A DNA stretch of 64,000 bases from Candidatus Geocrenenecus sp. JGI 0000106-J15 (GTDB lineage Archaea > Thermoproteota > Nitrososphaeria_A > Caldarchaeales > Wolframiiraptoraceae), in NCBI GenBank assembly GCA_000405685.1, contig ASPF01000012.1:14326-78325 (forward strand). The letters run 5' to 3'. The translations under genes and the position numbers were made by a program. Under the pieces are notes generated by a model, which saw only the letters and a list, made by a program, of their open reading frames with translations, had not been told where the DNA came from and searched no databases. Below are positions 23,591 through 57,526 of the stretch, piece by piece. Positions within the stretch are counted from its first letter, which is position 1; the number at the start of each line of letters is the position of its first letter.

Positions 23591-24691
23591 TTAACGAGTT
23601 TCTTCCCATCCTTCTTCCCATGATTCTCCTCTGCCCCATCCTCCCCATTCTTCCTCTTCTACTCTGATTACGCTACGTCTTTTCCTGATAATAATTACTA
23701 CAATAGCTATAGCAACTATGACTACTGCTATTATTATGATTATATTCCTTAAAGTTTCTTGACCAAGAAATGGCCAAGGCCACATCTGAGTCTGAGTTCC
23801 ACTCGTTATAGTGACGTTCTCTATCTTAGCTGGATATATCTCTACTTTTACGGTGTAGCCTCCTCCACCTCCAGCACCACCCATATTCTCAACAGAAAGA
23901 TAGAATGTATTTACACCAGTCTCCCAATCTCCACGAACTCTAAGAGTTACAGGTTCTCCTTTACTCTCAGATTTATTATGTCTTAGAGAAAACCCGTCGG
24001 GCGTGAGGAGAGATGCCCAGATCATTAGATATGGTTCAGGTTTAACCTCAACGTATATCTCATCTTTAGGCTGGAGATTCATACTTAGCTTATAATAATC
24101 TGAGTAATCATTTCCATATTCTTTCTCAGCTAAGTATCCTTTAAAGGTAGTTACGGCATCTCTAGAGATAGAAGGAGCTGGAATAGCATCTTTCATATTA
24201 GCTCCAGCATCTCTTCCAGAGTCTGCATCAAAGAAATACTCAATAGATATCTCTAGAGTATAGTTTAGGCTTCCACTACTTTTTCCAATCCGGATATATA
24301 ATGTATTTTCATCAGGATTGGTTGGATCGTATGCTAATAGATAACTTAACTCAACCTTCTTTATTACGTTTTTTCCAACTACTTGGTCGATACCAATAAG
24401 CCTAGCTCTACTTGGAGAGTAGAGTGAAACCGTAGTCAATCCAGGCTCAATACCTTTTAAGCTTCCCGAGATGCTGATCTGGATACCGCTCTTTAAATTT
24501 GTAAACATATAGTAATGATTATCTTCAAAAATCTTGGTTAGAGAACCGCTAATCGATGCTGAGCCTGTAGAAAGATCTACAGGTTTAGCAGTGTCGAAAT
24601 CAAGCCCAGGCTCTACTTCTTGAGAGTAGATGAGCGGAGTACATATTAGCATGATAGATAACAATAAAACAGTTATGCTTGCCTTCTCCAT
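23591..24691 (-). CDS. Secreted/surface protein with an N-terminal signal peptide, a C-terminal TM anchor and a Trp/Gly/Glu-rich cytoplasmic tail.
   Basis: Signal peptide MEKASITVLLLSIMLICTPLIYS|QEV. C-terminal IIIIAVVIVAIAIVVIII followed by RKRRSVIRVEEEEWGGWGRGESWEEGWEE. Confidence 0.5.
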   Translation of the reverse strand: MEKASITVLLLSIMLICTPLIYSQEVEPGLDFDTAKPVDLSTGSASISGSLTKIFEDNHYYMFTNLKSGIQISISGSLKGIEPGLTTVSLYSPSRARLIGIDQVVGKNVIKKVELSYLLAYDPTNPDENTLYIRIGKSSGSLNYTLEISIEYFFDADSGRDAGANMKDAIPAPSISRDAVTTFKGYLAEKEYGNDYSDYYKLSMNLQPKDEIYVEVKPEPYLMIWASLLTPDGFSLRHNKSESKGEPVTLRVRGDWETGVNTFYLSVENMGGAGGGGGYTVKVEIYPAKIENVTITSGTQTQMWPWPFLGQETLRNIIIIIAVVIVAIAIVVIIIRKRRSVIRVEEEEWGGWGRGESWEEGWEETR

Positions 24692-47325: not shown

Positions 47326-47763
47326 TTGACTAAAATAGATAAGAATGTTTTCCAGAAGCTCATTAGAGAGGTGGCTGAAGCTATTGAAGAAGTTAGAGAA
47401 ATTATTTCTCTAGATGTAGATACTTTTCTGAATGATAGAAGAGCAAGATTCAGTCTAAGGTATAGTATAGTATTGATCGTTGAGTCTTTAGCAGATATAG
47501 CTGTAGCCATTCTAGAAAAAGACTTTAACGAGGTTGTTGAATCTTACAGAGATGCCATAACGAAGTTAAGAGATAAGCGTGTACTGGAAAGCAGAGTCGC
47601 AGAGTCCATAGCAAGACTTGTAAGTTTGAGAAACCTAATAGTTCATAGGTATTGGGCAGTTGATGATCTGAAGATTTATGAATCTGCTAAAAGCAGTGGA
47701 ATAGAGAATATTGAGAGATTCATAGAAGAGGTGTCGAGATACGTCGAGGTTAAGGATGATTGA
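47326..47763 (+). CDS. hepT: HepT-like (DUF86) HEPN toxin.
   Basis: ...LVSLRNLIVHRYWAVDD is the R-x4-HxY HepT motif. Size 145 aa. Confidence 0.7.
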   Translation: MTKIDKNVFQKLIREVAEAIEEVREIISLDVDTFLNDRRARFSLRYSIVLIVESLADIAVAILEKDFNEVVESYRDAITKLRDKRVLESRVAESIARLVSLRNLIVHRYWAVDDLKIYESAKSSGIENIERFIEEVSRYVEVKDD

Positions 47764-48169
47764 AGAATCTAGAAGGAAGACGAAGATTCTCAGTGTTCAT
47801 GAGAAGAGAGAGATTATAAAATTATTGAAAGAAGCATTCAATAATATTGATGAAGTCTCTTTAGCTATAATTCATGGAGGATTTATAGAATGTAGAGTCT
47901 TCCGAGATATCGATATAGCGTTGTATCTCTCATGTGTTCCTCTTAGAGAAGACGTTCTTGAAGAAGTTAGAGAAGCATTAGAGAAGAAGCTTGATATCGC
48001 AATCGATATACAGATTTTGAATTATGCTCCACCTAGGTTTATTGTAAAAGCTTTAAAGAATGGCTTGATAATCGTTGAAAAAGTCCCTGGGTTTAGGGGA
48101 ATCTTATTTATACATGCACTCGAAGAACTGAATAGACTTAAAAGACCTAGAAATATTAAACTTATCTAA
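47756..48169 (+). CDS. mntA: MntA-like nucleotidyltransferase antitoxin.
   Basis: IIHGGFIECRVFRDIDIALYL carries the G[GS]...DxD motif. Overlaps hepT by 8 nt. Confidence 0.65.
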   Translation: MIEESRRKTKILSVHEKREIIKLLKEAFNNIDEVSLAIIHGGFIECRVFRDIDIALYLSCVPLREDVLEEVREALEKKLDIAIDIQILNYAPPRFIVKALKNGLIIVEKVPGFRGILFIHALEELNRLKRPRNIKLI

Positions 48170-48183
48170 TAAATCTCAGGGGT

Positions 48184-48870
48184 TTATCTTCTCGTTTCTA
48201 GAGATTTGATAGCCTGCGCTGCAAGCTGGGAGATCTTTACTTCTCCAAAAAATCCATCATAGTAGATTTTAACGATAGACTCATCATTTAGCATGTTCTT
48301 TAGTTTAGATAAAGCTTGATCAATCTTTAACTCTTGTATAGTTTTAATAGTATATGCTCTAGTCTCAGGGTCAGGGTCATCGAGTAGTTCTAGTAGTCTA
48401 TCTTTTAAGTTTATTTTAGCTTCTAGAATTCTTCTACCTATTCTTCCTAGAGAATAGATTACATATTTCATTTTTAGTTCCGGGTTTTCTATAAGGGAGG
48501 CAGTAGGATTGATGAAGTCGTTGAAGTCTTCTTCCATGATTCTACCGATTTCTCCAACTACTATTGGTGCACCCATACAGTAGCCTCCATTCTCTTCATT
48601 CATGTACCAGAACATTCTTCTAATAGTCTCCTTGGCGGTCTCAGGCTCATCTCTATAGAGATATCTGCAGATATATCCTATAGCTTCTGCAGCTCTAAAC
48701 ATATATAATTCATCACCATAGAGGTAGGAGATCAATATAGATAACGTCTTCTTAACGTTACCTATCTTTACGAGTTTATCGAATTCTCTATTTTCTAGAA
48801 TCTTAAGTATCTCTTTCTTCATATCTTTTCTTCTTTTATCATTTTTTCTAGAAGCTGGGTCGGTCTCCAT
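48184..48870 (-). CDS. HEAT/PBS-lyase-like repeat protein, hypothetical.
   Basis: LELLDDPDPETRAYTIKTIQEL and AAEAIGYICRYL are HEAT-like repeats. Confidence 0.35.
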   Translation of the reverse strand: METDPASRKNDKRRKDMKKEILKILENREFDKLVKIGNVKKTLSILISYLYGDELYMFRAAEAIGYICRYLYRDEPETAKETIRRMFWYMNEENGGYCMGAPIVVGEIGRIMEEDFNDFINPTASLIENPELKMKYVIYSLGRIGRRILEAKINLKDRLLELLDDPDPETRAYTIKTIQELKIDQALSKLKNMLNDESIVKIYYDGFFGEVKISQLAAQAIKSLETRR

Positions 48871-49307
48871 TCTTCTTTAATAGTATCGAGGACGATGTAT
48901 GTAATAGTCCTTTCTACATGCTCGTTTGCTAGTAATGTTTTAATGAATGTGCTTAATTCTTCTCTATCTTTAAATCTTGCAAGGATTACTGAGTCGGATT
49001 CTCCTGTTACATCATAGACACCATGTACGTTCGGATATGAAGCAATCAATTTTTGGACTTCAAGTAGTTTTCCATGTCTTATTCTTACATGGATTACTGC
49101 CGACAAAGTGTAGCCAATCTTAACGGGATCAATTAAGGCTATGTACCCCTTGATTACACCATTCTTCTCTAATGCTTCTACACGAGAGACAATGGTTGAG
49201 ACAGATACACCTATCTTCTCGGCGATCTTCCTAAAACTAGCTCTACCATCACGGAGAAGCTCAGCAAGTATCTTATAATCAAGATCATCTAGAGCTACCT
49301 GAACCAT
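48819..49307 (-). CDS. lrp: Lrp/AsnC-family transcriptional regulator.
   Basis: LDDLDYKILAELLRDGRASFRKIAEKIGVSVSTIVSRVEALEKNGVIKGY is the HTH, followed by a RAM domain. Confidence 0.85.
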   Translation of the reverse strand: MVQVALDDLDYKILAELLRDGRASFRKIAEKIGVSVSTIVSRVEALEKNGVIKGYIALIDPVKIGYTLSAVIHVRIRHGKLLEVQKLIASYPNVHGVYDVTGESDSVILARFKDREELSTFIKTLLANEHVERTITYIVLDTIKEEWRPTQLLEKMIKEEKI

Positions 49308-49706: not shown

Positions 49707-50222
49707 ATGTTTTTATTTTTATTTTGCATGAGTTATTGCATGGTTGTTAAGATTTCTGATGTAACTAGTGAGATTGTAGATCTAATCTCTAGGGATAATG
49801 TAGTTGGGCTTGCTACTCATAGGCATCTTCCCCATGAGAAAGCTATCTATATGAGGCATGGAGTATGCGGGTTTGCAGTAGATGTTATGCTTGAAGAAGA
49901 TGGTAGAAAGAATCTCTACTTTGTGCTTGTTACTGCTGAAGCTAAGCCAAGGAAGAAGATAGTAGATGACTGGATGAAGTATAGTGGAAGAGTAACATAC
50001 TACTTAACTGTGAAGACTGATAGAGGATTCAAGACTAAGAAGAGGATCTCAACATACCGTGATGGAGAACAATTATTCAAGCAGGTTGAAGAAGTTAGAC
50101 AAGCATTCTATAGAAAGTATAGAGAGCTGAAGATGAAGCAGGAGGTTGCACCTGTTAAGGTTGAAGAAGAGATATTTCATATGGTAGGGATCGAGGAGAG
50201 AGACTTATTTCTAGGAGTATAA
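49707..50222 (+). CDS. Hypothetical protein (171 aa).
   Basis: ORF with coding-like composition. No family recognised. Confidence 0.3.
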   Translation: MFLFLFCMSYCMVVKISDVTSEIVDLISRDNVVGLATHRHLPHEKAIYMRHGVCGFAVDVMLEEDGRKNLYFVLVTAEAKPRKKIVDDWMKYSGRVTYYLTVKTDRGFKTKKRISTYRDGEQLFKQVEEVRQAFYRKYRELKMKQEVAPVKVEEEIFHMVGIEERDLFLGV

Positions 50223-50247: not shown

Positions 50248-51519
50248 ATGAAGAATGGACCAGGCATATTCCAGTTAGCAGTCATTAATAAGAAGGATCA
50301 AAGAAGATATGAAGAGATAATTGAAACTAGACTAGAGATATTCGACTTTGTCACACTCAAGGAAAAATATATAGGACTAGACAATGATCAAGCAATAATT
50401 TTACATTTCTCTAATCCTTCGATCTTAGATGAGAGAAGCAGTGGTATAATATCTGTTGAATGTTATCCAGATGATCTTGTTAATGTTTTTGAGAAGATGA
50501 GGCTGGATATTTCATTAAAGGATCTTGGAGGGATGCTTGATGGTGTTGATGGATTCTTTACAGGCTTCATCATGGATAAGTCTAGAATTGTTATGTTTAG
50601 AGATCATGTAGGAGCTATACCATGCAATTACAGGGTTGATGATAGCTCTTTTGTGGCCACATCTTTTAAGAAGATGGTTGATGGATCGGTTTCCACTCCA
50701 CCTGGGAGGATAATTGTCTGGGATGGTAGATCATTTAAGATTCATAGATGGTATAGGTGGAGAAGATTTACTGGAGACTATATTGTTGAACTGAAGAATA
50801 GGTTGATTGATGTTTTCTCAAGATATCTTCCAGATAGTTTTAGTCTAGGTTTCTCAGGTGGTTTAGATAGTGTATTGATTGCTTATATCGGTTCTATGCT
50901 TGGAAGAAGGATAGAATGTATAACTGTTGGAGCTGAGGATTCTATTGATTTTCAGTGGGCTGAAGAAGCAGCAGCACCATTAGGTTTAAAACTTAAGAAG
51001 ATTATGATTGATGAAAAACTTGTAAAAAATACTGTAGAAGTTGTTTCAAGATATTTGGTAGAGCCAACCCTTATGGATCTATCTATAGCCTCGGTATTCT
51101 ATCTTGTGTCCACAAATAGTGTTCATGGCTTCATTGTTTCTGGTCAAGGTGCAGATGAGCTATTCGGTGGATACTATAAGTATGTAAAGCTTGGAAGAGA
51201 GAAAGGACTAGGATATGTTCAAGGCGTCATGATGAAAGATATACTTGAGTTGCATAAGACGAATATTGAGAGAGACTACTTAACAGTAGCAGTCGCAGGT
51301 AGGAAACTTATTCAACCATACTTGGCCAAGAAGATCTATGAAACAGCATTATCCACTCCAGTAAGCTTGAAGATTAGCCTAGAGAATAATTCTGAAAGAA
51401 AGATAATATTGAGGAAAGTAGGCAGGATACTTAGACTTCCAGATAAATTAATAGGGAGACCTAAGAAAGCATTACAATATAGTTCAAAAATACAGAAAAT
51501 GTTTTCCTCTGCTGTATAA
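50248..51519 (+). CDS. Asparagine-synthase-like PP-loop ATP pyrophosphatase (AsnB family paralog) with a degenerate N-terminal glutaminase-like domain.
   Basis: FSLGFSGGLDSVLIAYIG is the SGGxDS PP-loop. ...GQGADELFGGY matches the AsnB C-domain. No N-terminal Cys2. Confidence 0.6.
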   Translation: MKNGPGIFQLAVINKKDQRRYEEIIETRLEIFDFVTLKEKYIGLDNDQAIILHFSNPSILDERSSGIISVECYPDDLVNVFEKMRLDISLKDLGGMLDGVDGFFTGFIMDKSRIVMFRDHVGAIPCNYRVDDSSFVATSFKKMVDGSVSTPPGRIIVWDGRSFKIHRWYRWRRFTGDYIVELKNRLIDVFSRYLPDSFSLGFSGGLDSVLIAYIGSMLGRRIECITVGAEDSIDFQWAEEAAAPLGLKLKKIMIDEKLVKNTVEVVSRYLVEPTLMDLSIASVFYLVSTNSVHGFIVSGQGADELFGGYYKYVKLGREKGLGYVQGVMMKDILELHKTNIERDYLTVAVAGRKLIQPYLAKKIYETALSTPVSLKISLENNSERKIILRKVGRILRLPDKLIGRPKKALQYSSKIQKMFSSAV

Positions 51520-51626
51520 ATGTTATAGGGTTGGTGAGTGGCCCCTTGGAATAAGTTATTGTAGAGAAAATATCATCGTTTTCATAAAGATAATGATTAA
51601 ATAGAATATTTCTTGAATTATGCTCG

Positions 51627-52049
51627 ATGAGGAAGAGGCTAATACCGTTAATAGCATTATTAACAATGTTGGCTGTAGTAGCAGTAGCATACTCTGTAGA
51701 AATAAGTCTTCCTGAAGGAGAACCGCCAGACCTAGGTGCAACACCTAATGTAGTTGTGGCATGTCCGACACCGAAAGGTACCCTTTGTCAGATAGACAGT
51801 ATAAAGTGGATAATCTCGCCAACCCCTCCAAGAATGGTTACGGGTGTAAAAATTGACTGGAACCCTGGAAGTGCAAGTGGATATGATGTATACGTTGAAT
51901 TATACAATAGTGGCGATAATTACGTTGGAGGTGGGTCGGCAACTAGCACGAATACTGATCCTTTGGAAGTATCTTTCTCCGCATCAGTCAATCCTAAGGA
52001 TATCGATAAGATAAGGATAGTGATAATTGAAACTGGAGGTTACGAGTGA
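51627..52049 (+). CDS. Small secreted protein 1 (signal peptide ending VAVAYS|VEIS).
   Basis: N-terminal MRKRLIPLIALLTMLAVVAVAYS; the beta-rich mature part is ~115 aa. Confidence 0.55.
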   Translation: MRKRLIPLIALLTMLAVVAVAYSVEISLPEGEPPDLGATPNVVVACPTPKGTLCQIDSIKWIISPTPPRMVTGVKIDWNPGSASGYDVYVELYNSGDNYVGGGSATSTNTDPLEVSFSASVNPKDIDKIRIVIIETGGYE

Positions 52050-52069
52050 AATAAAGAGGCTAAAAATCT

Positions 52070-52546
52070 ATGAAGGGTAGACTTCCAAACTTCCTCTTTT
52101 TATTTTTTCTCATAATCACGTTCTTCATATTATTCTCTATTCTCGAAGCATACTCAACCCTAATAACAATATCAGAAGTAGAACCATTACCTGGGAGAAG
52201 TAGTATCACATATCTTCTCTCAAAATATACTGGTAGCCATGGAAGGTTTAACTTCATGGTTGAGACGAGGAGCGTAAGGCTTCAACCAACAGGAGCTTAT
52301 GTGAACTCAGCTGTAATCACATTATACTGGAGTGTAGAATCCCCTCCAGGTCAAAATGGAAGAAACTTCATTATATCAGTAAGACTCTACGATGATGAAG
52401 GAAGAAGTCTAACTAGCGGTTCTGTTACTGTCTGCCTTCTAAAGAGCACAAACTCAGGAAGCTATACTATAACCTTGTCGAACACGAATATTGACGATGT
52501 AGCCAAAGTGGAGACCTCAATAAGAGATGATGGACATTGGTGTTAA
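52070..52546 (+). CDS. Small secreted protein 2 (signal peptide ending LEAYS|TLIT).
   Basis: MKGRLPNFLFLFFLIITFFILFSILEAYS; Thr/Ser-rich beta-type mature domain. Confidence 0.55.
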   Translation: MKGRLPNFLFLFFLIITFFILFSILEAYSTLITISEVEPLPGRSSITYLLSKYTGSHGRFNFMVETRSVRLQPTGAYVNSAVITLYWSVESPPGQNGRNFIISVRLYDDEGRSLTSGSVTVCLLKSTNSGSYTITLSNTNIDDVAKVETSIRDDGHWC

Positions 52547-52932
52547 ACATGATGAAGAAGACTCTTATCATATTTATCTTCATAATCTTAATAACTACTA
52601 CATTAGCATACTCTACAGCAATCTACGTTGGAGACCTAGGCCAGCTTGGAGCATCTGAAAAAACACCTGTAGCTAAATATAATCTCAGAGTCTACTCAGT
52701 CTCAATAACGGTTGAAAACAATCAGATAACAAGTATAACGATAACAGTAGCATCATCCATTCCAGGAAACTACAATATATATGCAAGAGTCACGAGTGGG
52801 TCATGTAGTGCAACTGCCACTTGGAACAATGTAGACCTTTCAACACAGAGAACACTCTCATCATCTCTCACGCCACAATGTAGCTATACTCCTCCTGGTG
52901 CCGCAGTCGAGGTAGGAGGTGAGCCTGTATGA
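52537..52932 (+). CDS. Small secreted protein 3 (signal peptide ending TLAYS|TAIY).
   Basis: MMKKTLIIFIFIILITTTLAYS; the mature domain is compositionally similar to protein 2. Confidence 0.55.
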   Translation: MVLNMMKKTLIIFIFIILITTTLAYSTAIYVGDLGQLGASEKTPVAKYNLRVYSVSITVENNQITSITITVASSIPGNYNIYARVTSGSCSATATWNNVDLSTQRTLSSSLTPQCSYTPPGAAVEVGGEPV

Positions 52933-53588
52933 AGCTTAAACTACTAACTATATTCATGGTTACAGTTATAGTTTTAATGAGTCTTGGGTTTGTTGATGAT
53001 ATTAGATTGTATCGTATTGTTTCTCCTAGTATGGAGCCTCTTATACCTGTAGGCTCGCTTGTAGTAGTCTCACGTTCTGAGCCAGTCGGTATCGGAGACA
53101 TAGTAGCATATAGGCTAGACGTAATAGGTAGAAGCTATACACTTGTACACAGAGTAGTCGATGTTAAAGATGGATACTATACTATTAGAGCAGATGTTGA
53201 CCCTACAAGTGCAGGTGAAACATTAGAAGCAGGGAAGATTATTGGTAAAGTAGTATTGGCTATACCATTCCTAGGATATATTGCAGGAGTAGTAGCTGTT
53301 CTACCAGCTATGATATTATTGATACCTCTTGCATCAAAGAAAGATGGTATGGGCTTCCCGACAGCAGCCTTCATATCATTCCTACCATCGATCCTACCTA
53401 TACATGGTCTCGCAGCATCCATAGGCCAGATACCCTTCACAGCGATAACAGCTGGCTCAATAATAACTACAAGAATAATACTAGAGAAGAAAGATAAAGA
53501 TATAGCAGAATTAGTTTATCTAGTCGCTGCAGCAGTAAGCATTATAAGCATCAACGTAGTAGAGATGGTGGGCTGGCTTGCCACCTAG
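52929..53588 (+). CDS. Type I signal peptidase of the archaeal/eukaryal Sec11/SipW type (Ser-His), with a C-terminal polytopic extension.
   Basis: The Ser box is RIVSPSMEPLIPVGSLVVV. GDIVAY. The His box is TLVHRVVDV. An N-terminal TM is present, plus ~100 extra hydrophobic C-terminal residues. Confidence 0.7.
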   Translation: MKLKLLTIFMVTVIVLMSLGFVDDIRLYRIVSPSMEPLIPVGSLVVVSRSEPVGIGDIVAYRLDVIGRSYTLVHRVVDVKDGYYTIRADVDPTSAGETLEAGKIIGKVVLAIPFLGYIAGVVAVLPAMILLIPLASKKDGMGFPTAAFISFLPSILPIHGLAASIGQIPFTAITAGSIITTRIILEKKDKDIAELVYLVAAAVSIISINVVEMVGWLAT

Positions 53589-55437
53589 ACAATTAACATT
53601 CTTCATAACAATAATAATTCTGGCAGCCCTCCTAGCATATACTATCAACACAGGATACACAACAACTGAATATATAATCAACTCAAACTACATAGTACCA
53701 CTAACACTAAACGGTGTTGAAGCACAACCACCAGTCAAAGCATTAGCTGGAGATACAGTATGCGTAAAAGAACTTACAGTATATCTGCAGCAAAATAAGC
53801 GGCTAGTATTTAGAGGATGGGATGATGGATTAACAGACCAATGTAGAGTAGCTGGAGGAAACCATACAGCAATATACGAGATGGAGGTCCTACTACAAGT
53901 CTACACCGAACCCAAGGCATTAAGAAAGAGTGAATGGGTGAAAGCAGGCTCCCTAATAAAACTAGAATACCCTGAGATCTACTATCAAGATGGATCAGAG
54001 AGATATGTTTTCGAGTCGTGGAGTAGTGGAGAAAACCCATTCCACCCAACCAACATAATCTATGTCTCTGAGCCAACCCGTCTAGAAGCAAGATACATCA
54101 AGGAATATCTTATAACAGCTGTAGGAGAAGCAGAGATAAATGGTACAGGATGGTATAGAGAAGGAGAAGTAGCAGTACTAGCTACACCGCCAGTAATCTA
54201 TCTATCAAATGATGAGAGATTAATCTTTACAGGATGGGAATCTATAGGACCAGTACCTGTAATCATCAACAGCCCCCAGAGTCCTATCACCATAATAAAC
54301 GTTAAAGGTCCATATATCTTAGAAGCAAAATATGAGAAACAATATAGAGTTGAGGTAACAAGCCCTAAAGGTGTATTATTTAAAGGATGGGTGAGAGACG
54401 GCGAGACGATTAGGATACAAGCAGACCCAACGATACAGCTACAAGAAGATGTAAGGCTGAGATTCATAAGATGGAGTTTAAGCGACCTTCCATCAGTACC
54501 AGACTTAACCCTCCAAGTACATCAACCATACAATCTAACAGCACTATACATTAAGCAATACTATCTAGCAGTAGAATCCCAGTATGGTGTAGCAGGTGCA
54601 GGATGGTATGACGAAGGAGCAATAGCAACTGTTAGAGCAAACCCCCAGCCTCCATCCAACATCTTGATAAACAGGAAACTAGTAGGATACTCAGGAGACT
54701 GCCAAGAAGATTGTCAGACAACCAATGGGGCAATAACATTAAAGATGGATTCACCTAAGAAGATAAGAACGATCTATGCTACTGAGCCAAACCTACTAAC
54801 AATAGGGATAATAACAGGGATAGGTGGAGCACTAGTAGCAGTATACGCTCTAACAGGTAGGAGAAAGCCTGAAGAAGTTGAGGTGAAAATCGAGGAAGCA
54901 TTAAAGGCAAAAACAATGAAAGAACCTGCTACTGCTGCCGCCCCCTCAAAAGCATTATTCAAATGCATGGAGTGTGGAGCAACTATTAGAGGTCAAGATA
55001 AAGCATTAAAACATTCAAGAAAACATAGATATGATAATATAGTTAAAGAATATGTAGCATTAGAAGAGATTGCTGAACCGATAAGTGAGAGGACAGCGAT
55101 ACTATGGATGAAAGGACTTAGACTTAGAATTACTCCACCAGAGCAGCCGACTGTTAAAGACCTTGTAAAGCCAGGGGACATCGTAAGATACACAGAGATA
55201 CCTGGAAGACTTAGAGTAGAGGTAGTTGAGAAGCATGAAAGATACGGTCTACCAGTCTTTACAGTAATAGCTGTCCCAGAAGAAGCTGGAAAGAATGGAT
55301 ATAGAAGATACATAAACGACCTAGTAGCACAAGATGGAAAAATATACTGTATAGATGAGGAATGCAGCTGTAGACTCTCCATAGAAGAACGTGCACCAAG
55401 ACTCAAGCAAGAGGAAAGCATCCCGAAACCCTCATAG
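53578..55437 (+). CDS. Large membrane protein: signal peptide (LLAYT|INT), four ~85-aa extracellular repeats, one TM helix, and a ~200-aa cytoplasmic domain with Zn-ribbon motifs.
   Basis: Repeats have the pattern ...[LV]xF[RT]GW... ... L.A.Y[IK]K[EQ]Y. TM is LLTIGIITGIGGALVAVYAL. The cytoplasmic part carries CMECGATIRGQDKALKHSRKH and CIDEECSC. Confidence 0.55.
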   Translation: MPPRQLTFFITIIILAALLAYTINTGYTTTEYIINSNYIVPLTLNGVEAQPPVKALAGDTVCVKELTVYLQQNKRLVFRGWDDGLTDQCRVAGGNHTAIYEMEVLLQVYTEPKALRKSEWVKAGSLIKLEYPEIYYQDGSERYVFESWSSGENPFHPTNIIYVSEPTRLEARYIKEYLITAVGEAEINGTGWYREGEVAVLATPPVIYLSNDERLIFTGWESIGPVPVIINSPQSPITIINVKGPYILEAKYEKQYRVEVTSPKGVLFKGWVRDGETIRIQADPTIQLQEDVRLRFIRWSLSDLPSVPDLTLQVHQPYNLTALYIKQYYLAVESQYGVAGAGWYDEGAIATVRANPQPPSNILINRKLVGYSGDCQEDCQTTNGAITLKMDSPKKIRTIYATEPNLLTIGIITGIGGALVAVYALTGRRKPEEVEVKIEEALKAKTMKEPATAAAPSKALFKCMECGATIRGQDKALKHSRKHRYDNIVKEYVALEEIAEPISERTAILWMKGLRLRITPPEQPTVKDLVKPGDIVRYTEIPGRLRVEVVEKHERYGLPVFTVIAVPEEAGKNGYRRYINDLVAQDGKIYCIDEECSCRLSIEERAPRLKQEESIPKPS

Positions 55438-56121: not shown

Positions 56122-57216
56122 ATGTTCTTAGCTGATAAGATATCAACAAAAGCAAAATATCCATTTCTTCCAGAAGCTAAACAAGCCTTCATAGCGTCAG
56201 GGTTTGAGCTAGAATCTTTTAAAGATCCATCTACAAGACCTATAGTTGAGAGAGCATCCTCAAGAATCATTAATGCATTACTGCATGGAGAGAACGTCAA
56301 CCCATATGAAGTTGTAGAAGATGATTTAACTGAGCTAGCATCCTTCCCACTTGCAATAATCCTAGCAGCAAAAACAAGCGATAAATATCTTCAGAGAAGA
56401 TTCGCATTAGCAGAAGCATCTATAGCATACAAGAGGCTGAACATGGAAGGAGACCCTGAATTCATCTTAAGAATCGCTAGAGAAGTCTTCAAGATAGATG
56501 TAGAGTATGATGATACATACCCACCATACAGCTACACAGTAAGCTTGATAGACTACTTAAAATCTGCATCTAAATTCAATGACCCAGCCTGGAAGCTGGT
56601 AAACAGAATAGTAGTTAGAGGTAGAGTATACATAGAATCCCGTGAGCTTATCCGTCTTCTAAGAGATAAGATAGAAAGATATATTCTAGAGAATATTGAG
56701 AAAGCGGAGAAAGAAATTGGAAAACTACCAGAGAATCTTGAAGAAGCTGTAAAGAATATTAAAAACAAGATACCTGAAAGAAAAATTGAAGATCTAACAT
56801 TAAAAGAAGGATCAAGACCTGAAGCATGGCCTCCATGCATGAAGTCGATATACTCTAAGCTTAAATCAGGTGAAAGTGTAAGCCATTTCGCAAACTTCAT
56901 GATAGCAGCATTCCTAGTAAATACAGGGGTTCCCACAGAAGAGATAATCTCAATATACTCTCAGAGAAGCGACTTCAATGAAAGAATAGCTAGATACCAG
57001 GTAGAACATATCGCAGGAATGAAAGGTAGTAGGACGAGATACATTACGCCAAGTTGTAGTAAGATAAAGACTAACGGGTTATGTATTGAAGATGGAAGAC
57101 TATGCGGAAACATTAAGAACCCGATGACATACTATAAGAGGAAGATAAGGGAGCTTAAGAGAATTGATAAAGATAAAGCTGAACAGACAGGAGAACACAA
57201 TCAATCTAGCGGCTAG
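56122..57216 (+). CDS. priL: DNA primase large subunit PriL, Fe-S domain.
   Basis: ...EAWPPCMKSIYSKL...VSHFANFMIAAFLVNTG...SIYSQRSDFNERIARYQVEHIAGMKGSRTRYITPSCSKIKTNGLCIEDGRLC contains the PriL Cys ligands and the WPPCM motif. Confidence 0.85.
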   Translation: MFLADKISTKAKYPFLPEAKQAFIASGFELESFKDPSTRPIVERASSRIINALLHGENVNPYEVVEDDLTELASFPLAIILAAKTSDKYLQRRFALAEASIAYKRLNMEGDPEFILRIAREVFKIDVEYDDTYPPYSYTVSLIDYLKSASKFNDPAWKLVNRIVVRGRVYIESRELIRLLRDKIERYILENIEKAEKEIGKLPENLEEAVKNIKNKIPERKIEDLTLKEGSRPEAWPPCMKSIYSKLKSGESVSHFANFMIAAFLVNTGVPTEEIISIYSQRSDFNERIARYQVEHIAGMKGSRTRYITPSCSKIKTNGLCIEDGRLCGNIKNPMTYYKRKIRELKRIDKDKAEQTGEHNQSSG

Positions 57217-57526
57217 CCTAGCTGAAGAACTAGGCTCCCTAGAAGTATTCCCGATAATCAAGAATAATGAAATAGTACTAGATGATTCATCCTCAAGTAG
57301 AATCTTAAGCATTGAAGAAGTATTACCATACATCAGAAGAAGCCTAGAGAAATCAAAGACAAAGTATAGATACATACATGTTAAAGGAGAGACAATCTAC
57401 ATAGAAGATGTAGAAAGCGGAGAGAAAATATCTGAACCTCCCCTACTATTCTGCCCATTCTGTGGATACGCAACACAATATGAAGAAATATACTGGATAC
57501 ATGTAAAAAGCCATGGAGTAATCTAA
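57164..57526 (+). CDS. Small protein with a C-terminal C2H2-like zinc finger; overlaps the priL 3' end by 53 nt.
   Basis: LLFCPFCGYATQYEEIYWIHVKSHG. Confidence 0.4.
   Translation: MIKIKLNRQENTINLAASLAEELGSLEVFPIIKNNEIVLDDSSSSRILSIEEVLPYIRRSLEKSKTKYRYIHVKGETIYIEDVESGEKISEPPLLFCPFCGYATQYEEIYWIHVKSHGVI

Follow-up and report, generated by a model that had tools for sequence, protein, structure and literature searches.

A conserved five-gene cassette that pairs a Sec11/SipW-type signal peptidase with three small secreted paralogues and a repeat-bearing membrane protein, and its possible role in cell-surface assembly

Five consecutive genes in a 64-kb stretch of DNA (hereafter the window) from the hot-spring archaeon Geocrenenecus (Aigarchaeota/Caldarchaeales) form one conserved unit that encodes three small secreted proteins (P1, P2 and P3), a signal peptidase (SPase) and a large membrane protein (Large). 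The P1-P3 family is unannotated, and is probably distinct from the protein families of known biofilm-fibre operons. We propose that the cassette is a self-contained operon for the Sec- and SPase-I-dependent assembly of a cell-surface structure, either a fibre or an anchored assembly, working like the TasA, Tafi and AbpX systems with unannotated subunits; we judge this reading about equally apt to be right or wrong. Checking of the open reading frames placed all five at 51627-55437 of the window on the + strand, tightly packed or overlapping, just as the original prediction had it:

51597..51603, + strand, candidate archaeal TATA-like box TTAAATA
51627..52049, + strand, P1, secreted, 140 aa, cassette gene 1
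52070..52546, + strand, P2, secreted paralogue, 158 aa
52537..52932, + strand, P3, 131-aa open reading frame; probable true start ATG 52549, giving 127 aa
52929..53588, + strand, SPase, Sec11/SipW-type signal peptidase I, 219 aa
53578..55437, + strand, Large, type I membrane protein, 619 aa, TTG start

The later start of P3 is suggested by its orthologues. P1 and P2 are separated by 20 nt, with GAGG found 11 nt upstream of the P2 ATG, P3 overlaps the SPase gene by 4 nt, and the SPase stop overlaps the Large start by 11 nt, in agreement with the overlap predicted for that pair; both overlaps are identical in loci L001, L005 and L006. The TATA-like box, recognised from sequence only, lies 24-30 nt 5' of the P1 start and would yield a leaderless or short-leader operon transcript.

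The order P1-P2-P3-SPase-Large is found in the window and in 13 further loci (L001, L005, L006, L007, L008, L009, L013, L014, L017, L018, L020, L021 and L022), and is kept in L016, L019 and L023 as far as their contigs extend. Conservation of the order in relatives had been named as a check on the original prediction; every Caldarchaeales locus covering all five genes keeps it, a recurrence that puts the arrangement far beyond chance. SPase identity across the five-gene loci falls to about 29%. The same set in the same order is carried by a Desulfurococcales MAG, and a Chloroflexota MAG has an expanded cassette, with six small genes instead of three and a duplicated Large ectodomain. Of the cassette, one MAG has only a P1-like gene and the SPase: Large, P2 and P3 are all missing from the 16 kb read. 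Two others (L003 and L004) have an intact Large at the syntenic site without P1-P3 or SPase, and show no SPase remnant within the 20 kb read. No further gene around the cassette is common to the loci compared, and the cassette stays together in changing genomic contexts and across phyla. In four distant lineages the family comes with an SPase I gene; the predicted pairing of a dedicated SPase with small secreted proteins persists even in a bacterium and at the minimal locus of two genes. An upstream AsnB-like gene was rejected as a member, being a neighbour in one clade only and remaining where the cassette is absent.

The SPase comprises an N-terminal transmembrane anchor, a compact catalytic domain and a polytopic C-terminal region:

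53028..53030, + strand, codon of the predicted catalytic Ser34 (SPSMEP), invariant in 7 orthologues
53148-53150, + strand, codon of His74 (HRVV), invariant in 7 orthologues
53193-53195, + strand, codon of Asp89, invariant in 7 orthologues
53334..53585, + strand, residues ~136-219, extra membrane region (hydropathy)

It matches Peptidase_S24 at 28.2 bits (cut-off 23.3) and TIGR02228 at 50.6 bits (cut-off 51.85), and among PDB sequences SEC11A/C at E about 6e-7. These Sec11-like matches and the invariant motifs agree with its prediction as a Ser-His SPase I of the Sec11/SipW type. The unusual polytopic C-terminal region is likewise real by hydropathy, with hydrophobic segments past residue 103 that amount to ~3-4 extra transmembrane helices, or about five overall; its Lys-rich loops fit an in-out-in-out topology. 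Caldarchaeales keep this region, as does the Chloroflexota homologue, which matched profile positions 28-213; loci L022, L034 and L038 lack it.

All four secreted proteins, P1, P2, P3 and Large, have signal peptides of n-h-c form with small residues at positions -3 and -1. The features of the small proteins are as follows, a slash marking the predicted cleavage site:

P1 residues 1-23, + strand, signal peptide ending VAVAYS/V
51696..51767, + strand, P1 residues 24-47, mature N-terminal extension, V-x-I-x-L…[Q/D]-L-G-[G/A]-T…V-x-V-x-C-P
P1 residues 42-135, + strand, Ig/FN3-like sandwich (AlphaFold)
P2 residues 1-29, + strand, signal peptide ending ILEAYS/T
P3, + strand, signal peptide ending TLAYS/T, then conserved segment T-A-I-Y-V…Q-L-G-A-S…V-x-K
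P3 residues 50-130, + strand, six-strand Ig-like sandwich with Cys90/Cys115 (AlphaFold)

In each of P1, P2 and P3 an n-region is followed by a hydrophobic stretch of 16-20 aa and then A-Y-S. The shared A-Y-S motif singled out by the original prediction is therefore present, but it is simply an A-x-[S/A] SPase I site: of the 89 P1-family members 85 have Ala at -3, with Y, F or L at -2 and S or A at -1. The hydrophobic stretch is variable whereas A-x-[S/A] and the residues after it are conserved, as expected of a Sec signal that is cut off. One unrelated secreted ORF within the window has a signal ending IYS/Q.

With signal peptides removed, pairwise hhalign comparison of P1-P3 gave probabilities of 97.1%, 92.8% and 90.0%, so the proteins described beforehand as paralogue-like are true but distant paralogues. 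P1 and P2 share an L-Y-D-x-x-G…S-G-S motif, and mature P2 begins T/V-x-I-x-I…P-L-P-x-R and contains Cys122/Cys158. The mature proteins are 105-129 aa long, with 6-7 strands in the models, and N-glycosylation sequons are almost absent. The Ig-like cores of the P1 and P3 models are confident, and Cys46/Cys54 of P1 are conserved. The first ~20 mature residues of the small proteins are conserved at least about as well as the fold, yet AlphaFold leaves them unplaced. In P1, Val24 never varies, Ile26 and Leu28 hardly do, and residues 24-47, the stretch with the strongest conservation, average 3.10 bits per column across the family against 2.82 for the core; residues 24-40 are nonetheless unplaced, with pLDDT <50 at residues 17-30 and 32-40. 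The segment is not folded back onto the domain in the model, unlike reports for AbpA and Saci_0406, and the P1 model has seven strands, with no obvious missing strand or open groove.

Large has the following parts:

Residues ~1-28, + strand, signal peptide, cleavage after G-Y-T28 by orthologue alignment
53740..54786, + strand, residues 55-403, ectodomain of ~five tandem ~70-aa modules of divergent InlB B-repeat type
54787..54858, + strand, residues 404-427, single transmembrane helix
54859..55434, + strand, residues 428-619, cytoplasmic tail, ~190 aa
54964-55026, + strand, residues 463-483, C2H2 zinc finger (C463-x2-C466-x12-H479-x3-H483), a weak match to the classical C2H2 type
Residues 591-598, + strand, C-x4-C-x-C cluster in the cytoplasmic tail

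The signal peptide foreseen for Large exists, although the orthologues move its cleavage site from LLAYT22/I to after T28. Extracellular repeats were also correctly foreseen; instead of four of ~85 aa there are about five of ~70 aa, as judged from self-comparison of the profile (99.6% hhalign probability at an offset of one repeat) and from about five copies of an R-x-x-F-x-G-W motif. PF18998 is matched by the Chloroflexota orthologue (25.7 bits, cut-off 23.6) and carried by distant matches, the Caldarchaeum orthologues falling just under the cut-off. The predicted tail and single transmembrane helix hold, but the tail is not a Zn-ribbon, since its finger weakly matches classical C2H2 fingers. 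It is confined to the clade of Geocrenenecus, L001 and L005.

The likeness to TasA-SipW operons proposed originally is borne out in operon logic, which matches published TasA-SipW, Tafi (TafD) and AbpX loci. As in tapA-sipW-tasA of Bacillus subtilis and the AbpX/SPase I loci of Pyrodictium abyssi and relatives, a subunit gene adjoins a dedicated Sec11/SipW-type SPase I (PMC9245690, PMC12518558, bioRxiv 10.64898/2026.01.04.697558); those loci frequently encode accessory minor subunits and anchors, and the systems likewise occur in archaea and bacteria, Chloroflexota included. TasA and AbpX, however, belong to the Peptidase_M73 superfamily and are larger, jelly-roll proteins; P1-P3 have no sequence or listed structural match to them, the AbpX-linked SPases are reported with ten transmembrane helices against about five here, and the cassette has no TapA-like protein. 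Tafi loci are archaeal clusters of 5-7 genes, found as taf-like loci in Haloarcula, Natrinema, Thermococcales and Archaeoglobales; their TafD is an S24/S26-type SPase with four transmembrane helices, needed for subunit processing and fimbria formation, and tafD deletion abolished the fimbriae and left TafA unprocessed (PMC11821415, PMC12337348). Both they and the cassette combine two or three small secreted subunits and a dedicated SPase with a membrane-anchored component (TafF there, Large here). In contrast to Tafi, the cassette subunits are small (105-129 aa mature), Ig-like and without a DUF1102 match, their signals are of Sec rather than Tat type, the SPase lacks an extracellular Ig-like C-terminal domain, a B-repeat stalk with a single transmembrane helix would serve as the anchor, there is no DUF5305 (TafG) partner or tip-protein gene, and the hosts are Caldarchaeales, Desulfurococcales and Chloroflexota.

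The thread of Sulfolobus acidocaldarius (Saci_0406; PMC9715654) and AbpA of Pyrobaculum calidifontis (PMC9245690) are also built of beta-rich subunits that pass through Sec/SPase I processing, with a paralogous minor or cap subunit encoded adjacent. Both have larger subunits, that of the thread bearing heavy N-glycosylation (PMC9715654), and neither came up among the best structural matches. Neither locus has a dedicated SPase gene; the bundling-pilus locus with its own peptidase evoked by the original prediction is not what is reported for Pyrobaculum, but AbpX and Tafi loci do have one. The mature N-terminus that SPase I creates is the donated strand of the TasA, AbpA, thread and Tafi filaments (PMC9245690, PMC9715654, PMC11821415, PMC12337348, PMC12518558), a feature that the cassette would share with Tafi, thread and AbpA. 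Chaperone-usher pilins of the FimA/PapA type resemble P1 in having an Ig-like fold and, N-terminal to it, a conserved extension in which hydrophobic residues alternate. Such pilins lack the seventh (G) strand and require a chaperone and an usher, whereas the P1 model is a full seven-strand sandwich and the cassette contains neither gene; we know of no outer membrane in the organisms that bear it.

Against a fibre count the seven-strand P1 model with its N-terminal segment not folded back, the two loci with Large alone and the near absence of sequons. A somewhat unlikely alternative is a non-filamentous surface complex of fixed stoichiometry, in which P1-P3, once cleaved, would use their N-terminal segments to bind the B-repeat ectodomain of Large, forming a membrane-anchored envelope, adhesion or receptor module. 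The Chloroflexota locus fits such a complex better than an open-ended polymer, as the small genes rise from three to six exactly where the ectodomain is duplicated, but this correlation comes from one species. One copy of each paralogue in constant order at every archaeal locus covering all three, and the lack of an evident acceptor groove in the P1 model, point the same way, and in one clade the C2H2 tail is a hint of a signalling role or of anchoring inside the cell. On the other hand, the lineage with only a P1-like protein and SPase implies that P1-type proteins can work without Large, Large persists at that site in L003 and L004 in the absence of the small genes, and no P-type domain is detectable in Large.

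That P1-P3 belong to the TasA/camelysin-AbpX-Tafi (DUF1102) superfamily as highly divergent members, which would make the fibre a homologous TasA-like one, is quite unlikely. The shared logic of subunits, SipW/Sec11-type SPase and anchor favours it, as may the G-G-T-G-x-V-x-V motif, which we take to resemble A-G-T-L-x-L near the mature N-terminus of TasA-like proteins. Published members, moreover, often escape all but the most sensitive profile or structure comparisons (PMC9245690, PMC12337348). The TasA/camelysin-like identity suggested at the outset nevertheless found no support: at E<=0.1 Peptidase_M73 and DUF1102 matched none of the 89 P1 and none of the 30 P3 family members, and at E<=1 none of P1-P3 of the window, and the P1 and P3 profiles retrieved no TasA-superfamily chain from PDB sequences at E<=10. 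Structure prediction of P1 and P3, the proposed check for a TasA-like fold, gave small Ig/FN3-like sandwiches whose neighbours among the matches listed were generic, none from the TasA superfamily, and the mature lengths are well below the 163 aa of AbpX and about 180 aa of AbpA.

It is very unlikely that P1-P3 resemble type IV pilins or ArlF/ArlG, their N-terminal hydrophobic helix either staying on or being cut by a class III prepilin peptidase, and SPase I having no bearing on them. P3 has a weak, sub-cut-off match to Arch_flagellin (E 0.0075) and two relatives are annotated in databases as 'UPF0333' and 'FlaG/FlaF family'; but Arch_flagellin touches only 2/30 P3 and 0/89 P1 members, all below threshold, and Pfam shows no class III signal family in P0100, the protein labelled 'UPF0333'. 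The hydrophobic stretch is not consistently preceded by a [K/R]-[G/A] site, pilus ATPase, platform and prepilin peptidase are not conserved nearby, and both the signal pattern and the recurrent SPase I gene tell against this view. Most improbable of all is a housekeeping SPase I beside unrelated secreted proteins, since, although the window holds no second SPase I, the five genes travel together across phyla, two MAGs lack the cassette SPase at the syntenic site, and the Chloroflexota bacterium has this archaeal/ER-type enzyme within its cassette, Ser-Lys LepB-type SPases being what bacteria normally depend on.

For a Sec- and SPase-I-dependent surface assembly we infer polymerisation, processing by the cassette SPase and a role for each protein. 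Sec would export P1, P2, P3 and Large, and the co-encoded SPase would remove their signal peptides at the A-x-[S/A] sites, baring on each small protein a conserved N-terminus: a short strand of alternating hydrophobic residues (V-x-I-x-L), after which P1 and P3 continue with Q-L-G-G-T-G. Through strand donation or edge-strand addition, this segment probably associates with a neighbour's Ig-like sandwich, and such pairing would join P1 with P2 and P3 into a thin fibre or matrix. P1, encoded first and with the largest family, is likely to be the major subunit, and P2 and P3 minor or adaptor subunits. The extra transmembrane helices of the SPase may couple cleavage to assembly, and Large, as a membrane-anchored B-repeat stalk, probably tethers the assembly to the cell surface or nucleates it there.

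The five genes lie on the forward strand of the window at 51627-55437, where the original prediction had placed them, and encode three small secreted proteins (P1, P2 and P3), a signal peptidase I (SPase) and a repeat-rich membrane protein (Large). We interpret this cassette as a probable surface-assembly operon in which Ig-like subunits of an unannotated family are combined with a private signal peptidase and a B-repeat anchor. The source organism belongs to the Caldarchaeales (Aigarchaeota); among named organisms, Candidatus Geocrenenecus arthurdayi has the closest relative of the locus, with 87% identity in SPase. The predicted overlap between the SPase and Large genes is present and measures 11 nt, that between the P3 and SPase genes measures 4 nt, and both recur identically in three relative loci (L001, L005 and L006).

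Features of the cassette, in window coordinates
24-30 nt upstream of the P1 start, + strand, TTAAATA box (sequence reading only)
51627-52049, + strand, P1, 140 aa
11 nt upstream of the P2 start, + strand, GAGG (sequence reading only)
52070-52546, + strand, P2, 158 aa
52537-52932, + strand, P3, 131 aa; orthologue starts correspond to the ATG at 52549
52929-53588, + strand, SPase, 219 aa
53578-55437, + strand, Large, 619 aa

Profile HMMs of all five proteins were run on every fetched locus, each of them from a metagenome-assembled genome (MAG) or a metagenome contig. The gene order proved to be conserved, being the same at every archaeal locus that covers all five genes: the window, L001, L005, L006, L007, L008, L009, L013, L014, L017, L018, L020, L021 and L022. 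L016, L019 and L023 likewise keep it to the limits of their contigs. These loci include Caldarchaeum, Calditenuaceae, archaeon HR01 and other Caldarchaeales; SPase identity among them falls to about 29%, their surroundings differ, and no further gene was common to the surroundings of 10 loci. All five genes are also present in a Desulfurococcales MAG. A bacterial version was found in the Chloroflexota MAG GCA_030693085.1 (L036:211-6442 and L037), with six small paralogs (two P1-like, two putatively P2-like and two P3-like), a 273-aa SPase with the helix extension described below and a 762-aa Large whose ectodomain is duplicated. At L038:8001-9181 (GCA_027074805.1, GC 49%) a P1-like gene is followed by a 189-aa SPase I, with no P2, P3 or Large within 16 kb. 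L003 and L004 (GCA_023268155.1 and GCA_038860495.1) have the window neighbourhood and an intact 623-aa Large gene (71% identity) and lack P1-P3 and SPase; a 437-bp spacer remains (L003:9564-10001 and L004:7887-8324, syntenic with window 51519-53578), in which no remnant of the four missing genes was detectable. The SPase gene was found always within the cassette, the bacterial case included, and is missing at the syntenic site in two MAGs.

The AsnB-like gene directly upstream does not belong to the unit. It adjoins the cassette only in the Geocrenenecus-type context and was ruled out as a system member, as it is still there where the cassette is missing. It encodes an Asn-synthase-domain protein (50248-51519, + strand) with only a faint glutamine-amidotransferase part, and is preceded by a conserved ORF of 160-171 aa with no family (49707-50222, + strand); these two genes occur together in L003/L004, L006 and L008/L009 as well, irrespective of the cassette. 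Further upstream, at 47326-48169 (+ strand), the genes for a HepT-like HEPN RNase (145 aa) and an MNT/Pol-beta nucleotidyltransferase (137 aa) overlap; they form a toxin-antitoxin pair, and related genomes have other toxin-antitoxin genes (PIN, RHH) in this slot. L001 (12494-13270, - strand) and L005 (3938-4711, - strand) each have a ParA/MinD-like (AAA_31) gene shortly downstream in the opposite orientation, and a response-regulator gene follows the Chloroflexota cassette.

On its matches to family models, its closest solved relatives and its invariant residues, SPase is assigned as a Ser-His, Sec11/SipW-type (ER-type, S26B) signal peptidase I, as had been proposed. It scores 28.2 bits against Peptidase_S24 (cut-off 23.3) and 50.6 bits, just below the cut-off of 51.85, against TIGR02228 (sigpep_I_arch); among PDB sequences human SEC11A and SEC11C come closest (E about 6e-7). 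The seven orthologues compared share the catalytic box Ser34-Met-Glu-Pro (SPSMEP), His74-Arg75 and Asp89 without exception. The unusual polytopic C-terminal region was also borne out, with about three more helices past the usual C-terminal membrane helix and lysine-rich loops compatible with alternating topology. Most Caldarchaeales versions share this extension with the Chloroflexota homologue; it is absent from L022, L034 and L038 and is therefore accessory.

P1, P2 and P3 each have a basic n-region, a hydrophobic stretch of 16-20 residues and a small-x-small cleavage site. Across the P1 family (n = 89) position -3 is Ala in 85 proteins, -2 is Tyr, Phe or Leu and -1 is Ser or Ala, and all 89 have Val at +1, with x-I-x-L after it. 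The AYS sequence that had been picked out before the three mature domains is indeed shared, but it is no special motif: it is an ordinary A-x-[S/A] SPase I site whose -2 residue is aromatic. As a recognition tag it was ruled out by its variation in relatives, which have AYA, AFA or ALA in its place, and VEA, ASA or AHA in Large. Elsewhere in the window a 366-aa ORF (23591-24691, - strand), unrelated to the cassette and with no Pfam family, has a signal peptide ending in IYS before Gln and is probably another secreted protein; VYS before Asp, considered as a second unrelated example, was discarded since that protein is a polytopic PMT-like glycosyltransferase.

We found 92 P1-type and 30 P3-type relatives, those with an organism name coming from Nitrososphaerota/Aigarchaeota-type MAGs, and when 1.84 billion representative proteins were searched in full with the P1 profile (HMMER), 105 clusters were returned, nearly all of 120-160 aa. 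Neither Pfam nor NCBIfam has a model that fits P1, P2 or P3 of the window or any of ten distant members scanned. First hhalign scores among P1, P2 and P3 were rejected as proof of paralogy, being inflated mostly by the signal peptides; mature-only alignments of five sequences gave 48%, 25% and 3%. With deep alignments and the signal peptides removed, the probabilities were 97.1% for P1-P2 (E 5e-11), 92.8% for P1-P3 (E 4e-7) and 90.0% for P2-P3 (E 1.6e-6), over most of the predicted strands of the P1 and P3 models. By these profile comparisons P1, P2 and P3 are genuinely, though distantly, paralogous, in line with the original prediction. The mature proteins are of 105-129 aa and have conserved cysteine pairs; N-glycosylation sequons average 0.27 per protein in the P1 family and 0.23 in the P3 family, with none in P1, P2 or P3 of the window (51627-52932). 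In L001 (7986-8432) the signal-peptide part of P1 is out of frame with the mature part, through a frameshift or an assembly error, and the near-identical protein P0059 is intact.

AlphaFold monomer models were made for P1 and P3, from modest alignments, and both are predicted to be small Ig/FN3-like sandwiches. The P3 model has six strands and a mean pLDDT of 84 (core residues 50-130 above 90); that of P1 has seven strands, one of them C-terminal, and a mean pLDDT of 74 (core residues 42-135 averaging 76-95 per ten-residue block). Neither shows a TasA- or AbpA-like jelly roll. The best Foldseek match in the PDB had an E of 8e-3, and the matches listed include no TasA, AbpA, thread, Tafi, cannula or chaperone-usher subunit. 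The initial 20 or so mature residues are unplaced in both models (pLDDT below 50). Their conservation appears to be at least about that of the fold (3.10 vs 2.82 bits per column in P1 and 2.91 vs 3.12 in P3), with the pattern V-x-I-x-L…Q-L-G-G-T-G-x-V-x-V in P1 and P3 and V-x-I-x-[IV]…L-P-x-R in P2.

Large begins with a signal peptide. Cleavage had been placed after LLAYT22, but the orthologue alignment favours a site after G-Y-T28. Extracellular tandem repeats are present, occupying residues 55-403 (self-hhalign 99.6%); they are of about 70 aa and carry five R-x-x-F-x-G-W-type motifs, rather than forming four units of about 85 aa. PF18998 (Flg_new_2) does not match Large of the window, so its assignment rests on relatives: it scores 25.7 bits with the Chloroflexota orthologue, above the cut-off of 23.6, and about 22 bits, just below it, with Caldarchaeum orthologues, and is present in distant homologues. 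Through these relatives the repeats are tentatively assigned to a divergent InlB B-repeat kind. An exact-sequence look-up of Large returned no match, and a search within it for a pilin-like acceptor domain detected none. A single transmembrane helix (404-427) is followed by a cytoplasmic tail of about 190 aa, found only in the Geocrenenecus/L001/L005 clade; other orthologues stop 20-35 residues past the helix. The tail had been described as a Zn-ribbon, but its pattern, C-x2-C-x12-H-x3-H, is that of a canonical C2H2-type finger, with a weak match to classical C2H2 fingers. A second C2H2-like finger in the window, C-x2-C-x12-H-x4-H, ends a conserved 120-aa ORF with no Pfam family (57164-57526, + strand), directly after the primase large-subunit gene.

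The pairing of subunits with an SPase has been published for TasA-SipW, Tafi and AbpX (PMC9245690, PMC12518558, bioRxiv 10.64898/2026.01.04.697558; PMC11821415, PMC12337348), and the cassette is functionally most like the Tafi/taf-like and AbpX/TasA loci. Deletion of the Tafi SPase gene, tafD, abolishes fimbriae and leaves TafA unprocessed (PMC11821415, PMC12337348). In TasA-SipW, Tafi, AbpX, AbpA pili and thread filaments the N-terminus made by SPase I is a strand donated to the next subunit (PMC9245690, PMC9715654). Of the proposed likeness to TasA/SipW the operon logic holds, whereas a TasA-superfamily sequence or fold is not supported, and TasA/camelysin identity is unlikely: Peptidase_M73/DUF1102 (PF12389/PF06510) gave no match in P1-P3 of the window at E<=1 or in 89 P1 and 30 P3 relatives at E<=0.1, no TasA/camelysin superfamily member among PDB sequences matched at E<=10, and the structural matches listed hold no TasA-like neighbour. 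TafD-type peptidases have a C-terminal Ig-like ectodomain, whereas the C-terminal part of the cassette SPase consists of membrane helices only, and none of the five conserved genes matches DUF5305 (TafG). Tafi loci have an Lrp/AsnC-type regulator, TafB, and AsnC/Lrp-type genes lie near several cassette loci (window 48819-49307, - strand; L034:6418-6846, + strand), directly upstream in the Desulfurococcales locus. No twin-arginine pattern (S/T-R-R-x-F-L-K) was seen by eye in the small-protein n-regions (MRKR-L, MKGR-L and MMKK-T). Archaeal bundling pili had been offered as a parallel, but the Pyrobaculum ABP locus and the thread locus were both ruled out as models, a dedicated SPase being absent from each (PMC9245690, PMC9715654); the Sulfolobus acidocaldarius thread subunit is glycosylated, whereas the P1 and P3 families are nearly sequon-free. 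The cassette has no chaperone or usher gene, and chaperone-usher pilins have an Ig fold without the G strand, unlike the seven-strand P1 model. As the defining features tested for the Tafi and AbpX/TasA families were not found in it, we regard the cassette as a separate variant of SPase-carrying surface-assembly operons. No publication describing it was found, and the single paper found to name Geocrenenecus makes no mention of pili, appendages or S-layers.

The simplest reading is that SPase is dedicated to processing the small proteins, since this subunit family is constantly accompanied by a Sec11/SipW-type SPase, even in a bacterium. The small proteins would be exported and then cut by SPase, exposing the conserved V-x-I-x-L segment, which by analogy may pair with the Ig-like domain of a neighbour. 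We infer the steps beyond export and cutting. P1 may be the main subunit, given that its gene comes first, that its family is the largest and that it suffices with SPase in L038; the minor subunits would be P2 and P3, with Large as the membrane anchor. Tentatively, the whole would form a surface polymer or anchored assembly without kinship to the TasA superfamily, in which complete Ig-like domains are joined by the SPase-made N-terminal strand, the B-repeat stalk is the base and the extra membrane domain of SPase an assembly platform, and which would have moved horizontally among Caldarchaeales, Desulfurococcales and Chloroflexota; in all these parts together it is possible rather than probable.

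A serious rival, itself rather doubtful, is a fixed surface complex on Large instead of a fibre. In the P1 model the seven-strand sandwich is already complete and is not self-complemented by the N-terminal segment, and the Chloroflexota co-duplication, from three to six small genes and from one to two Large ectodomains, suggests a fixed stoichiometry; the retention of Large alone in L003 and L004 and the near-absence of sequons also speak against a fibre. Type-IV-pilin-like small proteins are very unlikely: Arch_flagellin gave sub-threshold matches in 2 of 30 P3 members and in none of 89 P1 relatives, the class III motif [K/R]-[G/A] before the hydrophobic helix is inconsistent in the latter, and no pilus assembly ATPase, platform protein or prepilin peptidase is conservedly linked to the cassette at 10 loci. 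A housekeeping role for SPase, the least credible reading, is countered like the pilin one by a variable hydrophobic stretch beside a conserved cleavage site, by the missing pilus machinery and by the conservation of the cassette.

Hardly any Caldarchaeales (Aigarchaeota) have been cultivated, and no description of a surface appendage was found for them in the searchable literature. The cassette offers a concrete five-gene candidate for attachment or matrix building in this order and in some Desulfurococcales and Chloroflexota, and its unannotated subunit family enlarges the growing group of fibre-type systems with their own signal peptidase. With their small size, near-absence of sequons and conserved cysteine pairs, the mature proteins would suit expression and self-assembly tests. 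If the subunits are unrelated to TasA, the combination of subunits with a private signal peptidase would have arisen more than once.
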